Below, piece by piece: positions 3,195 through 27,491 of a DNA stretch of 32,000 nucleotides. Under the pieces are notes generated by a model. It was not told the DNA's origin. It did not search any database and was given only the letters and a program-made list of their open reading frames with translations. How positions within the stretch are numbered: position 1 is the stretch's first letter; each line of letters opens with the position of its first letter. Source of the stretch: Candidatus Saccharimonadota bacterium (GTDB lineage Bacteria > Patescibacteriota > Gracilibacteria > BD1-5 > UBA6164). The DNA is taken from the NCBI GenBank assembly GCA_004563595.2, contig CP042461.1, positions 90,001-122,000 on the forward strand, written 5' to 3'. Position numbers and translations under genes: made by a program.

Positions 3195-3611
3195 ATGCCT
3201 ACTATTAATCAATTAGTAAAGAGATCGAGAAAAACTCCTGCAAAAAAGAGTAAATCTCCTGCTTTACAAGTGATAAAAAACTCAATTAGATGAAAATTCG
3301 TTGAGATGCCTGGAGGATGTCCTCAAAAAAGAGGTGTATGTGTAAAAGTTACTACTATGACACCTAAAAAACCTAACTCTGCCCTAAGAAAAGTTGCAAG
3401 AGTAAGACTTACAAACTGATTTGAAGTAAATGCTTACATCGGTGGTGAAGGTCATAACTTACAGGAGCATTCAGTTGTTGCTATAAGATGAGGAAGAGCA
3501 AAAGATCTTCCATGAGTAAGATATCATGTTGTTAGATGAGTACTTGATTGTGAAGGTGTTCAATGAAGAAATCAATGAAGAAGTCTTTATGGTACAAAAA
3601 AACCTAAGTAG
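3195..3611 (+). CDS. rpsL: 30S ribosomal protein S12
   Basis: [13 protein letters not shown]...[33 protein letters not shown](G)[23 protein letters not shown](G)GRAKDLP(G)VRYHVVR(G)VLD. By hand count 7 of about 17 Gly codons are TGA. TAG at 3609-3611. Confidence 0.95.
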
Positions 3612-3737
3612 TCAACTCTCTACATGAAGATAACAGATAAGTAGAATATTATTTTACTTTTCCTTATATCAAAAATTTTGGAGTAAGTCTAACAATTACT
3701 GAAAAATTTAACCAAAATTTTTGATTCCCATTTATAA

Positions 3738-4178
<441 letters not shown>

Positions 4179-4209
4179 AAAAAACTTTAATTAATTAATT
4201 TATCTAAAA

Positions 4210-4482
4210 ATGGCTCATAAGAAAGCTCAATGATCTACGAGTAATGGTAGAGATAGTAATGCCAAAAGACTTGGTGTAAAATTATTTTGAGGACAAAAAG
4301 CTATCGCAGGAAATATTATCCTAAGACAAAAAGGAAATAAATACTGGGGTGCTGAATGAACTACTACTGGTTCTGATTTTACAATTCATGCAAATACTGA
4401 AGGGACTGTAAAATTTTTCAAAAAGAAAAGAAAAAACTTTGCTGGAAATACTTTCCTAGATACTTATGTTTCTATTATATAA
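4210..4482 (+). CDS. rpmA: 50S ribosomal protein L27
   Basis: MAHKKAQ(G)STSNGRDSNAKRLGVKLF(G)GQKAIAGNIILRQKGNKYW is the canonical L27 N-terminus. TAA at 4480-4482. Confidence 0.92.
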
Positions 4483-4495
4483 TTATAGAAATAAA

Positions 4496-4535
4496 AAAAG
4501 AGAGGCCTTATCGTAAGATAAGCCTCTCTTTTTGA
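4496..4535 (+). terminator. Rho-independent terminator closing the ribosomal-protein block
   Basis: AGAGAGGC(C)TTATC-GTAA-GATAAGCCTCTCT stem with one bulged C, followed by a run of five T. Confidence 0.8.
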
Positions 4536-4618: not shown

Positions 4619-4918
4619 ATGAACAATATAAAAGATCGACATAAGGTTCTTCAAGAACAATTATATCTAGTTGAAATTGGTTTGCGATCAAATAAAACAC
4701 GAATTTTAGAACTTGAAGATCGTATTAAAAGAACTCGAGAATTAAATGATGATGATGAGGGCAGAATAAATGGATATTTATCCCGAATTGAAGAATTAAA
4801 ACTTTCATATAAATCTTATCAGGTTGATTCTTTAATTTATACTTGTAAACTTACATTAATGCATATTTTTATACCCCTCATTTGGAATGAGGCGTGGTTT
4901 AAAAAATGATATATATAG
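4619..4918 (+). CDS. Hypothetical small protein with a coiled-coil N-terminus and hydrophobic C-terminus; codon usage looks foreign
   Basis: ATG at 4619 behind a strong Shine-Dalgarno site. The 96 codons contain no internal TGA, and 6 of 8 Arg codons are CGN, whereas neighbouring genes use AGA almost exclusively. The standard-code stop TGA at 4907 is read through under table 25 to the TAG at 4916-4918. Confidence 0.5.
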
Positions 4919-4921
4919 GAT

Positions 4922-4954
4922 AAAAAAAGAGCATATAAAATTGCTCTTTTTTTT
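4922..4954. terminator. Bidirectional rho-independent terminator
   Basis: AAAGAGCA-(8 nt loop)-TGCTCTTT flanked by an A-run upstream and a T-run downstream. It lies between the convergent ORF 4619-4918 (+) and 4970-6148 (-). Confidence 0.75.
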
Positions 4955-4969
4955 ATGAGAATGAATTTA

Positions 4970-6148: not shown

Positions 6149-6301
6149 AAATTTATATTAATAGAGTAACTTTGAGTTTATTTTAAAAGTATTTTTTTTA
6201 TTTGCAACCTGTTCCGACTTTTTCCTCCTTTTTTCTTGATTATGGAGAGAAAATCTGTATATTTATTACATATTTTATTTTGTATTAAATTTTTCTAAAA
6301 T

Positions 6302-8854
<2,553 letters not shown>

Positions 8855-24968: not shown

Positions 24969-25664
24969 TTATTTTTCTTCAGTAGACATATCAAGTTTAA
25001 TTGATGGCCCCATAGCGTTACAGATAAATACAGAGTTGATGTATTTTCCTTTTGACCCAGCTGGTTTTATATCTTCCATAAGTTTTAAGAAAAATTCTAA
25101 GTTTTGGATTAATTTTTCAGTTCCGAAAGATAGTTTTCCAAAAATTGTATGAACATTCCCTTGTTTATCATTTTTGAATTCAAATTTACCTGCAGCAATT
25201 TCTTTTGTGATTGCAAGTAGATCTGGACCAACAGTACCAGCTTTAGGGTTAGGCATAAGACCTTTAGGTCCTAATATTCTAGCAATTTTCCCTAGGTGTC
25301 TCATCATTGAAGGAGATGCAATACATACATCAAAATCAAGTGCAACGTTTCCGTTAGCGATATCATCAATTAATTCTTCGCTCCCAGCAACTGTCGCTCC
25401 TGCATCAGTTAACTCTTTTGCATTTCCATCAGTGAAAGCACAGATTTTAGAAACTTTACCAGATCCGTTTGGTAAAGAAATAGTAGATCTAACCATTTGA
25501 TCAGCATGTTTTGGATCAAGGTTTAAGTTCAAATGTATTTCTACAGTAGGGTCAAACTTAACAGTGTTTGTTTTTTCTAATAATTCAACTGCTTCTGCAA
25601 CTGAGTAAGCCATTTCAGAGTTAACTAACTCTACAGCTTTGTTATATTTTTTACCTCTTGCCAT
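24969..25664 (-). CDS. rplA: 50S ribosomal protein L1
   Basis: Intact 231-aa ORF: MARGKKYNKAVELV...KFDPTVEIHLNLNLDPKHADQMVRSTISLPNGSGK...ILGPKGLMPNPKAGTV. It uses AGA for Arg like the host, but none of its roughly 19 Gly codons is TGA. Confidence 0.93.
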   Translation of the reverse strand: MARGKKYNKAVELVNSEMAYSVAEAVELLEKTNTVKFDPTVEIHLNLNLDPKHADQMVRSTISLPNGSGKVSKICAFTDGNAKELTDAGATVAGSEELIDDIANGNVALDFDVCIASPSMMRHLGKIARILGPKGLMPNPKAGTVGPDLLAITKEIAAGKFEFKNDKQGNVHTIFGKLSFGTEKLIQNLEFFLKLMEDIKPAGSKGKYINSVFICNAMGPSIKLDMSTEEK

Positions 25665-25754: not shown

Positions 25755-25773
25755 AAAAAAAGGAGAAAGTAAA
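25755..25773. repeat. Left copy of the imperfect direct repeat flanking the PAICS-like cassette
   Basis: AAAAAAAGGAGAAAGTAAA here versus AAAAAAAGAAAAAGTAAA at 27224-27241. The two differ by one substitution and one 1-nt indel. Confidence 0.4.
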
Positions 25774-25794
25774 GTTTATTTTTTACATGTTAAA

Positions 25795-25820
25795 GGCCTA
25801 TTCGCTTTTGCGAATAGGCC
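25795..25820 (-). terminator. GC-rich hairpin 12 nt downstream of the PAICS-like gene stop codon
   Basis: GGCCTATTCGC-TTTT-GCGAATAGGCC is a perfect 11-bp stem. On the minus strand only UUU follows it. Confidence 0.5.
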
Positions 25821-25832
25821 AGTTAGTATGAG

Positions 25833-27134
25833 CTATGAATTTACCACTTCTTCCATTTCATACTGCCGATGCATATATGCGATCGGGTTTGTCATGGAAA
25901 GGATATTCAAAGCATTTAGTACTGCATTTTTTGGATTTACTACAGTCGCTGCTGGAACATTTGAAGGAAGTCTGAGACTACTCCAAACATCTTCAGGGTG
26001 CTCATCAAGACTAGGTGGACAGTTAATAACCGGCCAAATAGTTTGAGCACTGAGAATTGGTCCGAGACCATTACTCATTCCTGCCATAGCAATAATGACA
26101 GCACCTTGTGGATATTTTGCTTCTAGTTCATTGAGTTTTTCAAGAACAAGAGCAGGTTTTTTGTGAGCAGAAAGTGTTACTTCCTCCACTGAAATACCGG
26201 ATATATTTGGTACCTCAGGGGATTTATCGTTTGGAGATCCACGCCATAGAATAATGGCTTGTTCAGGAATTAAAGGTAAATTATTACTGAGTATAGAAAC
26301 CCGGTTATATTTACCTTCAACTTCTGCTAGTGGACTGCCATCACGAAAAGACTGTTTACTTACATCTTTCCAATTAGGTGTTCTCAATCGAGCACTATCA
26401 CTATCAATTACATCAGATACTACTAAGTGACCTTTCCAATCAATTCCAAATTCGATTTTGAAATCAACGTAACGGTAACCAAGTTTTTTCCAAGCACCTT
26501 CAAGAACTAAAAACACTTTGCGTGTAAGTTGTTCAATTTTAGATACTTGTATTCCTTGGAGTACTTTTTCAGCTATGATGCTTATTTCTAAATTAGCACT
26601 TGCTTCATGACGTTGTTGTTTTGGTTGATATAGATCCCAAGTTTCATCATATGGATTGATAATAAAGGGATCTTCAACTGGAACGTCTTGTAATAGTACT
26701 TCTTTATTTCGAAGACATGCACCACCAGTCGTTTTTAAAAATAATTCGAAAACTAAATTTGAAGAACGTTTGGGGTTTTTACCTTCAGTTGGTTTCAGAT
26801 GAGGACATCTTTTTAGAGAGCTTCCATCAAAGTAGCGACGAATAATCACTTCAAGAGGGATCATCTCAGTTTTTTTTGCAACGAATGAATCTTCTGTATG
26901 ACGAGCAATAAAAGCTGTTGGAATGCCAGCTTTTTCAAGGAGTTCAAATGAGTTACAGGTTGTATTTGTAGCAAATATTGCTTTTGATGCAAAGCTTTTA
27001 GTAAGACTTGGATCATCATTTGCAGTAATAGCATTATTATTTCTGATAATACATTTGTTGGGATCACCATCAACCTCTAGGAGGCTTTTAGTTTTTCCAC
27101 TTTCAATTTCAGGACCTTCTTGATATTGTGACAT
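25833..27134 (-). CDS. Bifunctional SAICAR synthetase (PurC-like N-terminus) fused to a class-II-type AIR carboxylase (PurE-like C-terminus), the PAICS/ADE2-like architecture
   Basis: The N-terminal part (GKTKSLLEV...AITANDD...AGIPTAFIA...EMIPLEVIIRRYFDGSSLKR...VDFKIEFGID...VSDVIDSDSARL) is SAICAR-synthase-like. The C-terminal part (VTLSAHKKP...IAMAGMSNGLGPILSAQTIWPVINCPP...DVWSSLRLPS) carries the SNGLGP signature I recall from class II PurE/human PAICS, not the AAHLPGM of class I. GGAGG lies 8 nt upstream of the ATG at 27134; an alternative ATG is at 27149. No TGA in about 434 codons. About 12 of 16 Arg codons are CGN. Ends in TAG at 25833-25835. Confidence 0.85.
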   Translation of the reverse strand: MSQYQEGPEIESGKTKSLLEVDGDPNKCIIRNNNAITANDDPSLTKSFASKAIFATNTTCNSFELLEKAGIPTAFIARHTEDSFVAKKTEMIPLEVIIRRYFDGSSLKRCPHLKPTEGKNPKRSSNLVFELFLKTTGGACLRNKEVLLQDVPVEDPFIINPYDETWDLYQPKQQRHEASANLEISIIAEKVLQGIQVSKIEQLTRKVFLVLEGAWKKLGYRYVDFKIEFGIDWKGHLVVSDVIDSDSARLRTPNWKDVSKQSFRDGSPLAEVEGKYNRVSILSNNLPLIPEQAIILWRGSPNDKSPEVPNISGISVEEVTLSAHKKPALVLEKLNELEAKYPQGAVIIAMAGMSNGLGPILSAQTIWPVINCPPSLDEHPEDVWSSLRLPSNVPAATVVNPKNAVLNALNILSMTNPIAYMHRQYEMEEVVNS

Positions 27135-27194
27135 AGTAGATGCCTCCATAGGATTATTGTATGTCGTTTTCCGTTTTATTATAAAACGGACCTT

Positions 27195-27222
27195 ATTATA
27201 TAAAATAGTGTTTATTAGTCAA
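27195..27222 (-). promoter_or_regulatory. Near-consensus sigma-70-type promoter for the PAICS-like gene
   Basis: On the minus strand, TTGACT (27222-27217), a 16-nt spacer, then TATAAT (27200-27195). An 8-bp hairpin, TCCGTTTT-ATTAT-AAAACGGA, follows at 27170-27190. Confidence 0.55.
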
Positions 27223-27223
27223 T

Positions 27224-27241
27224 AAAAAAAGAAAAAGTAAA
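27224..27241. repeat. Right copy of the imperfect direct repeat flanking the PAICS-like cassette
   Basis: AAAAAAAGAAAAAGTAAA, directly abutting the yidD stop codon (27243-27245). Compare with 25755-25773. Confidence 0.4.
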
Positions 27242-27242
27242 A

Positions 27243-27491
27243 TTACTTTTCTTTTTCTACAGGATCATAGCCTCATTTATTCCAAGGCATACATCTCAGA
27301 ATTCTTCATATTCACTTTATCGTTCATTTAAAGGCTCATTTTTTTTCTATTGATTCAACCATATATTGACTACAACTTGGGATATGCTTGCAGTATGGAG
27401 GATTATTTTTTGCCCAAAAAGAATGATCAGGGGAGATGTATCTTTGGTATATTTTTACTATTTTTATTAATTTATTTTGTACTATATTCAT
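27243..27491 (-). CDS. yidD: Membrane protein insertion efficiency factor YidD
   Basis: 82 aa. YQRYISPDHSFWAKNNPPYCKHIPSCSQYMVESIEKK(G)AFK(G)TIK(G)I(G)RILRCMPWNK(G)GYDPV matches the YidD/UPF0161 signature. Confidence 0.85.

Follow-up and report, generated by a model that had tools for sequence, protein, structure and literature searches.

The gene that is the subject of this analysis lies in a stretch of 32,000 nucleotides (positions 90,001 to 122,000 of contig CP042461.1; hereafter called the window) from the closed genome of Candidatus Gracilibacteria bacterium 28_42_T64. The window is written in genetic code 25, in which UGA specifies glycine, and its long housekeeping genes contain 27-39 in-frame TGA codons each. 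The gene in question is located on the minus strand (25833..27134) and is predicted to encode a protein of 433 amino acids (aa) in which a SAICAR (succinylaminoimidazolecarboxamide ribonucleotide) synthetase, or PurC, part is fused to an AIR (5-aminoimidazole ribonucleotide) carboxylase part of the class II PurE type; it is devoid of the TGA codons that abound in the genes around it. The origin of this fusion gene in a genome with the standard code is well supported, and we consider it probable, on balance, that the gene is an old import that has been passed on by vertical descent and from which UGA is actively excluded.

The coding sequence was recognized from the list of open reading frames (ORFs), from the sequence itself, with Pfam and by an exact database match. 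It stops with TAG at 25833-25835 and can be read from a first ATG (25833-27149, 438 aa) or from a second one (25833-27134, 433 aa). GenBank (A9Q91_00570) places the start at the upstream ATG, 27149, for a product of 438 aa; the second ATG, at 27134, is the start matched by all of the aligned orthologues, and a Shine-Dalgarno (SD) sequence that can be read from the DNA, GGAGG (27143..27147, minus strand), is located 8 nucleotides (nt) 5' of it. Further upstream lies a sequence match to a sigma-70-type promoter, TTGACT-16-TATAAT (27195..27222, minus strand), which agrees with the consensus at 11 of 12 positions. Directly after the -10 box there is a perfect 9-3-9 palindrome, TCCGTTTTATAATAAAACGGA (27170..27190, minus strand), that is predicted to form a stem-loop in the 5' region of the mRNA, and 3' of the stop codon there is a G+C-rich hairpin of 11 bp (25795..25820, minus strand; free energy dG -20.8 kcal/mol, z = -5.4), which is likely to be a terminator, though only a short U run comes after it. 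The neighbors of the gene in the window are yidD and rplA, one on either side. No second purine gene was detected in the window, as judged with Pfam for 10 non-obvious ORFs and from the translations of the remaining ORFs, and the window is without tRNA genes. In all of these respects our results agree with an earlier note on this DNA, made from the sequence alone, which had described a single ORF with a PurC domain followed by a PurE-like domain, the TTGACT-N16-TATAAT promoter, the GGAGG site 8 nt before the ATG, the G+C-rich 11-bp hairpin and the lone position between yidD and rplA with no other pur gene in the window.

Similar expression signals accompany the orthologues of this gene on other contigs, which we designate by L numbers. 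The promoter in L171 is also TTGACT-16-TATAAT, most of the others have TTGACT and match the consensus at 10 of 12 positions, and an SD sequence (AAGGAG or AGGAG) occurs at the same place. A hairpin follows directly after the -10 box in all eight leaders that were examined (window, L001, L002, L171, L172, L173, L176 and L079), with stem sequences that differ between them, which suggests that a 5' mRNA stem-loop has been conserved for stability or regulation; the leader hairpins were derived from single-sequence folds, a MAFFT-based consensus fold being uninformative owing to misalignment. Searches of Rfam with the leader and the 3' region found nothing meaningful (best E 0.88). Five leaders share a conserved AAAAGACAT...AGGAG before the ATG, and most orthologues have a strong hairpin after the stop codon, again of different sequence. 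The consensus promoter, the 5' stem-loop, the strong SD and the strong hairpin are suggestive of high expression, a suggestion that the codons chosen for other amino acids (see below) do not support.

The SAICAR synthetase part of the predicted protein extends over approximately residues 1-284 (26282..27134, minus strand), as indicated by the stretches matched in Pfam and NCBIfam, by alignment with human PAICS and by columns that are invariant among the aligned sequences, and the class II PurE part over approximately residues 290-433 (25836..26266, minus strand), as indicated by motifs and by a search of the PDB with this domain only. Pfam recognizes SAICAR_synt (PF01259, 7.8e-33) and AIRC (PF00731, 2.5e-21, at residues 313-417), and the NCBIfam model TIGR00081 matches the PurC part at 4.4e-26, which is under the equivalog cut-off. 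The best sequence matches in the PDB are the PAICS enzymes of Bombyx (4ja0, 7e-54) and human (2h31, 1e-44), both of which span both halves of the protein. A model computed with AlphaFold from 13 sequences (pLDDT 87.6, pTM 0.88) also has PAICS chains as its best fold matches, the top one being human PAICS 6yb8 (E 1.7e-30, TM-scores 0.67/0.69), and it matches PurC structures with target-normalized TM-scores of 0.85-0.89; in the loops that make inter-subunit sites the pLDDT of this monomer model is low (55-71).

When the PurE domain alone is compared with the PDB, the PAICS enzymes (3.6e-21 and 2.4e-18) and the class II PurE of Treponema denticola (3.9e-11) score better than the class I PurE chains (about 2e-6 to 8e-3; best 2ywx, in which the aligned segment is SAHR). 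The domain carries the class II signature S322-A-H-K325 and G352-M-S-N-G-L357, as well as G299-S300..D303, and the class I motifs SAHR(T)P and GG(A/S)AHLPGM are not present in the fusion protein. The T. denticola enzyme (3rg8), with SAHK and G-R-SN-A-L motifs, is the nearest stand-alone PurE to the window domain; unlike the window fusion, it is a protein of 159 aa that is not joined to PurC. The class I PurE of the E. coli type, which is also found on the code-25 contig L174, has the same fold, and with PurK it brings about the same net conversion of AIR to CAIR (the carboxylated form of AIR), but it acts as an N5-CAIR mutase, carries SAHR and GG(A/S)AH(L/I)xG motifs and depends on the ATP-dependent PurK, whereas the window protein has the motifs of class II. 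The comparison of class I and class II residues that had been proposed in the earlier note points to class II by motifs as well as by scores, and Pfam, the PDB matches, the domain-only search and the fold are in accord about an architecture of PurC followed by class II PurE; the motifs AGMSNGLGP, PVINCPP and DVWSSLRLPS are all present as the note had quoted them.

Metazoan PAICS (human 2h31/6yb8 and Bombyx mori 4ja0) has the same order of domains, SAICAR synthetase and then class II PurE, and shares with the window protein the motifs GKTK, SAHK, G-x-SNGLGP, PVI(N/S)CPP and DVWSSLRLPS. In structural alignment the identity is 27-29%, and the bacterial protein differs by an insertion after FLKT and by a shorter first PurE helix. 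Measured against the published list of active-site residues of human PAICS (PMC9376930), the PurC part of the window protein has kept GKTK (13-16), E95 (human E97), K226/E228 (K191/E193), D241 (D207), D246-S247-R249 (D212-S213-R215), K260 (K228) and R264 (R232), and the residues of the human PurE site that are also kept are G273-S274, D277, S301-H303-K304 and S332-N333-G334-L335. Two active-site replacements count against the proposed function: human R331 is replaced by Met both in the window protein and in the majority of the bacterial orthologues that were aligned, and human W214 corresponds to Ala in the window protein only among the aligned sequences. Further changes relative to the human enzyme are T275/S276 to P/N beside the phosphate site and G42 to N in the SAICAR site. 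Judged from its sequence and from the model, the protein appears to be a bifunctional enzyme of the PAICS type, in which the PurE(II) domain would carboxylate AIR directly with CO2 to yield CAIR, with no need for PurK or ATP, and the PurC domain would then add aspartate to yield SAICAR. The predicted conversions would amount to steps 6 and 7 of the de novo purine pathway.

The earlier note had emphasized that bacteria usually encode these enzymes separately and that the fusion is the metazoan arrangement. This view is not supported. In a large protein database the fusion family comprises 851 clusters at E <= 1e-10, and the best 120 of these 851 all have both domains and lengths of 402-481 aa, those with names being assigned to Patescibacteria or "Bacteroidetes"; clustering at 50% yields 217 representatives at E <= 1e-30. 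A scan of one genome per GTDB species found the fusion to be encoded in at least 583 of them, including many classes of Patescibacteria, Verrucomicrobiota, Xanthobacteraceae and Hyphomicrobiales (Alphaproteobacteria), Dependentiae, Tepidisphaerales and Polyangiaceae. The bacterial PurC-PurE(II) fusions have the same architecture, are about 430-445 aa long and 37-54% identical to the window protein, and their database entries carry the names "phosphoribosylaminoimidazole carboxylase / SAICAR synthase" or "AIR carboxylase family protein". In a review of purine synthesis in archaea (PMC3261824) the fused PurCE is called "common in eukaryotes", and our literature search found no paper on the bacterial PurC-PurE fusion. 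PurC-type proteins of about 280-330 aa of this kind are also numerous in the representative library. At the standard-code loci that we inspected (L011-L033 and L008-L010, mostly labelled Patescibacteria), G+C at third codon positions (GC3) is higher in the fusion gene than in the mean of its neighbors in 19 of 22 cases (for example, 0.56 versus 0.32 in L013 and 0.54 versus 0.33 in L031), and the CGN share of the fusion gene is often above that of the neighbors; the GC3 surplus implies that some gene-specific compositional bias exists across the family and not in the recoded genomes only.

In the window itself, the codon usage of the fusion gene sets it apart from the genes around it. None of its 21 glycine codons is TGA, for which the probability is 2.5e-8 relative to ordinary genes (TGA fraction 0.57) and 0.010 relative to ribosomal-protein genes (0.20). 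Thirteen of its 17 arginine codons (76%) are CGN in a host that uses almost only AGA, and CTN accounts for 72% of its leucine codons versus 46-52% in the host. The absence of TGA from some 21 glycine codons and the richness in CGN, which the earlier note had put at about 12 of 16 arginine codons, are thus both confirmed. The elevated G+C content that the note had reported is real for the gene overall (0.366 versus 0.26-0.34 in the neighbors) but does not extend to the third positions, where the gene is host-like (GC3 0.19), the surplus being at the first codon positions (GC1 0.53). In a likelihood-ratio codon score from which glycine and arginine are left out, the fusion gene resembles ordinary genes and not ribosomal-protein genes. 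The host-like GC3, the raised GC1 and this ordinary score together indicate that the third positions have equilibrated and that only the first-position synonymous choices are still foreign. The ribosomal-protein genes of the window use TGA for about 20% of glycines, versus about 57% elsewhere, and encode arginine exclusively with AGA; in rplA (24969-25664) TGA accounts for 0 of 19 glycine codons. Because of the low TGA content of the ribosomal-protein genes, UGA-glycine appears to be disfavored in the highly expressed genes of this organism.

The closest relatives of the window protein are 54-64% identical to it and are encoded on contigs whose other genes teem with in-frame TGA. Eight of the nine code-25 copies are without internal TGA (11-32 glycine codons each), and the genes beside them use TGA for about 33-100% of their glycines, mostly for 57-100%. 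Expressed as TGA among glycine codons, CGN among arginine codons and TGA/GGN in individual neighboring genes, the counts are 0/24, 4/18 and 12/3, 8/3 for L001; 0/24, 7/18 and 15/10, 7/2, 10/2 for L002; 0/26, 15/18 and 8/0, 13/1, 34/0 for L171; 0/21, 1/16 and 8/1 for L172; 0/32, 7/17 and 4/5, 10/20 for L176; and, for the PurC-only copy in L079, 0/11, 5/15 and 24/2, 22/7. L173 has 0/21 and 4/25 for the first two of these measures. The ninth copy, L005, has 11/23, 3/13 and 24/5, 22/10. A neighbor-joining tree unites the code-25 copies in a clade of their own (99/100 bootstrap), distinguished from the other bacterial fusions by its code-25 genomes and its avoidance of UGA, and this Gracilibacteria clade falls outside the large group to which the other copies labelled Patescibacteria belong. 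In the conserved arginine columns CGT is common to most of the copies and AGA takes its place in differing ones, which is the pattern expected of a decaying ancestral state.

Two of these copies are unusual in structure. The orthologue in one Gracilibacteria metagenome-assembled genome (L079, 907-1776) is a PurC-only protein of 290 aa whose gene is TGA-free and contains 5 CGN codons. L005 is the only orthologue that uses TGA among its glycine codons, and the seven of its 11 TGA codons that could be placed are in conserved glycine columns. In addition, L005 has a +1 frameshift in a run of seven A residues (ATTACAAAAAAATGATGAT; region 6290-6500) that cuts off the initial 40 residues and with them the ATP loop GKTK; the frameshift sequence is identical in the L006 and L007 contigs, and it could be a sequencing error, a site of slippage or a sign of incipient decay.

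Direct traces of the standard code are found at the ends of two of the orthologues. The first in-frame TGA of the L176 gene is exactly at the homologous stop (...YEIENLKK-TGA; region 1900-1941) and is followed by a tail of 40 aa, and in L173 a TGA is located exactly at the homologous stop (...EEIVNS-TGA; region 1500-1566) and is followed by a tail of 16 codons. In L173 the read-through tail extends across the SD sequence and the ATG of the gene that follows. We assign L176 to code 25 because its neighboring metK contains TGA codons, and translation in code 25 restores the conserved glycine motifs of MetK; L173 is assigned likewise because an in-frame TGA in the gene upstream falls on a glycine that is conserved in L079 and L002, and on the same ground we rejected the idea that L173 is a standard-code carrier inside the clade. 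The window copy, which stops at TAG, does not have such a fossil stop. The TGA-free gene bodies, the CGN relics and the fossil TGA stops of L176 and L173 support the foreign, standard-code origin that the earlier note had proposed.

The code-25 genomes also contain a different set of purine genes. Contig L174 (code 25) has a purL-purQ-purN-purD-purK-purE-purM cluster in which purE is of class I (SAHRTP, GGSAHIAGM) and in which the counts of TGA/GGN are 40/5, 28/13, 18/6, 20/10, 18/20, 14/19, 13/6 and 31/16. Beside the fusion gene of L171 (at 3277-4356) there is a full-length match to the purK model (1.5e-90; 304 bits, cut-off 318) with 34 TGA and 0 GGN codons. Since PurK has no obvious role beside a class II enzyme, this purK may have survived from a class I route that has since been replaced. 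A tblastn search of the window with the L171 purK for a relic of that gene gave nothing at E < 1, the relatives of the same Gracilibacteria purK include none from 28_42_T64, and the window genome seems to have lost purK. Such observations suggest that a PurK/class I route is native to the recoded lineages and that the fusion is a later import that made purK dispensable. The protein of about 470 aa at the purM position of the Gracilibacteria-type purine clusters (L174, 8467-9882), which is without a precomputed Pfam domain, is possibly a very divergent PurM. It has about 55 relatives, those with names all being from Gracilibacteria; one is annotated as AIR synthetase by the Joint Genome Institute, and 28_42_T64 is not among them.

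The earlier note had also wondered about the role of a lone enzyme in a lineage generally regarded as lacking de novo purine synthesis, a premise that is at odds with two observations. The paper on the closed genome of 28_42_T64 states that most of the purine biosynthesis genes are present (PMC6851277), and in a Parcubacteria genome (L010) the fusion gene is located between purB and a large purL.

With regard to the age of the gene, the most informative comparison is with L171 (GCA_029940435.1), in which the gene order is NifU, Rrf2, rplA, fusion, purK and rplT; in the window it is NifU, Rrf2, rplA, fusion, yidD, a small ORF and rplT. The fusion proteins of the two genomes are 59.8% identical, compared with 62.6% for NifU, 61.5% for Rrf2, 81% for rplA and 83% for rplT, and the four-fold sites of the fusion genes are saturated (47 of 113 identical). 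The simplest reading of these sequence comparisons is that the fusion gene was already at the rplA-rplT locus in the common ancestor of the window and L171 genomes. The acquisition had been called recent in the earlier note, which is at variance with the shared locus, by a divergence like that of the NifU and Rrf2 flanks and by the saturation of the four-fold sites. The note had further associated an old vertical gene with orthologues at the same locus and with host-typical codons; L171, a code-25 contig, provides the former but not the latter, its copy having the same foreign signature. A second synteny group is made up of L173 and L079, which have the same cyclic-nucleotide-binding gene directly upstream of the fusion or its PurC-only counterpart, and L002, which has it one gene further away.

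The cassette in the window is bracketed by an imperfect direct repeat of 27 nt. The left copy (25756..25782, plus strand) overlaps the -35 region of the rplA promoter and the right copy (27224..27250, plus strand) lies directly upstream of the -35 box of the fusion promoter. The copies are identical at 22 of 27 positions, which none of 400 shuffles reached, and over 20 nt the right copy shows 95% identity with the spacer between the rplA and PAICS promoters of L171 (1742-1761). The repeat could be the scar of an inversion or insertion, or a shared AT-rich element upstream of promoters.

The same pair of genomes shows how differently glycine codons have fared in the fusion gene and in its neighbors. 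All 17 of the conserved glycine columns in NifU and Rrf2 have TGA in at least one of the two lineages, and 9 of them are discordant, from which it follows that switching between GGN and TGA has been frequent since the window and L171 lineages split. None of the 17 conserved glycine columns of the fusion gene has TGA (Fisher p = 8.6e-10 versus NifU plus Rrf2). In L172 the arginine codons have turned to AGA (CGN in 1 of 16) and yet there is no TGA. If descent has been vertical, the frequent switching and the example of L172 mean that lack of time fails to explain the missing TGA. The remaining choices are that TGA is held out by selection or that the copies are not as old as their synteny suggests.

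The history that we favor can be outlined as follows. The ancestor of a sub-clade of the Gracilibacteria, in which UGA already specified glycine, would have taken the fusion gene from a bacterium that uses the standard code, and the newcomer probably replaced a native route of PurK, class I PurE and PurC. It would have been inherited vertically since at least the common ancestor of the window and L171 genomes, as an autonomous cassette with its own consensus promoter, 5' stem-loop, strong SD and hairpin. The third codon positions would have adapted to the host and the first-position choices would have remained foreign (GGN and not UGA, CGN and not AGA, CTN and not TTR), CGN being a relic that decays at rates specific to each lineage. 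UGA would be actively kept out of the gene, since the neighboring genes went freely back and forth between GGN and UGA during that time.

A number of observations weigh against this history. No standard-code donor was identified, the nearest standard-code sequences being 50-54% identical. The fusion gene is inverted in the window relative to L171, and the inversion together with the 27-nt repeat could reflect separate insertions at a hotspot. The fossil UGA stops persist in two lineages with an identity of about 51%, as would be expected of a young gene more than of an old one, and the TGA codons of L005 indicate that UGA is tolerated in the fusion protein. High expression was considered as the whole cause of UGA avoidance and was rejected on the codon score without glycine and arginine, which is like that of ordinary genes. 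The mostly complete purine pathway in which the enzyme would act in 28_42_T64 is reported in the text of a single paper (PMC6851277), the supplements of which contain no gene list. As to the nature of the selection, we think it unlikely that UGA is excluded by a gene-specific pressure conserved across the Gracilibacteria. Two forms of such a pressure are conceivable: the cassette might belong to a pool of genes under continual exchange across the code boundary, in which the only alleles to persist are those that can be read in either code, or the decoding of UGA as glycine might be unreliable when purine synthesis must switch on.

As an alternative, different Gracilibacteria might have picked up the cassette time and again, and rather recently, from an unsampled reservoir of related organisms with the standard code. 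Each copy would then look foreign on account of its youth, and no selection against UGA would be needed. Such turnover, which we regard as possible though rather doubtful, would account for the TGA-free and CGN-rich gene bodies, for the TGA codons of L176 and L173 that mark the ancestral stop, for the presence of an autonomous cassette in differing neighborhoods and for the flipped orientation and the direct repeat, and the GC3 surplus in 19 of 22 standard-code loci, with CGN often higher as well, would fit a mobile family. It is difficult to reconcile with the grouping of the code-25 copies in one clade (99/100), there being no standard-code member among the best 120 of 851 clusters in a database of 5.8 billion proteins; with the divergence between the window and L171 copies, which have the same locus and differ as much as their flanking genes; with the common upstream gene of the second synteny group; with L172, which has acquired host-like arginine codons and still has no TGA; and with the lack of a close relative in IMG/VR or among GenBank phages. 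A phage or mobile-element source was also examined as such and rejected: IMG/VR contains two full-length relatives at 44%, the rest of its matches being to purC only, and the matches among GenBank phages are weak and partial.

At the other extreme, the gene might be native and never transferred, its odd codons having come about through translational selection in a highly expressed gene. The sparing use of TGA by the ribosomal-protein genes (20% of glycines, and 0 of 19 in the adjoining rplA), the consensus promoter, strong SD and 5' hairpin, and the position of the clade outside the other Patescibacteria-labelled group, which is compatible with vertical descent within Patescibacteria, are all in keeping with this idea. 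We give it little credence, as the ribosomal-protein genes use AGA exclusively where the fusion gene has 76% CGN, the codon score without glycine and arginine is that of ordinary genes, the fossil TGA stops of two orthologues point to a standard-code past, and the other purine genes of code-25 contigs are rich in TGA and belong to contigs that use class I PurE and PurK. A local rise in G+C and a different codon signature could, lastly, betray a chimeric assembly or a standard-code contaminant between yidD and rplA, a concern raised in the earlier note. An artefact of this sort is very improbable: the 28_42_T64 genome has been closed and curated for perfect paired-read support (PMC6851277), GC3 is host-like, the same neighbors flank the gene in an independent assembly (GCA_029940435.1, L171), and several further code-25 contigs carry orthologues beside TGA-rich genes. 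The history that we prefer continues to be that of an old import, vertically inherited, from which UGA is actively excluded.

The predicted enzyme would be ordinary in its biochemistry, a bacterial fusion of the PAICS type for two steps of purine synthesis. The occurrence of the "animal" arrangement in hundreds of bacterial species corrects a common textbook impression, and so wide a bacterial spread bears on the origin of animal PAICS. In the recoded genomes, a gene of standard-code origin has stayed UGA-free in eight of nine sampled cases while its neighbors switched glycine codons freely, and two of its orthologues (L176 and L173) keep the UGA stop of the donor, which is now read through. 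The gene illustrates in concrete form a barrier set by the genetic code, in that a changed code marks, and perhaps constrains, the genes that are acquired horizontally, and it allows the idea of selection on reassigned codons to be put to the test. If the gene-specific exclusion of UGA is true, the gene and its fossil stops would constitute a natural system for determining whether, and at what rate, imports are "naturalized" after a codon reassignment.

The window may contain a second gene with a standard-code past. A small stand-alone ORF at 4619-4918 (plus strand), without a Pfam match, has CGN in 6 of its 8 arginine codons. It is equipped with its own TTGACA promoter-like site and SD sequence and is located between strong hairpins at 4498-4530 and 4922-4955. 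Its sole TGA occurs 3 codons before the TAG, so that the product would be 96 aa long in the standard code and 99 aa long in code 25.

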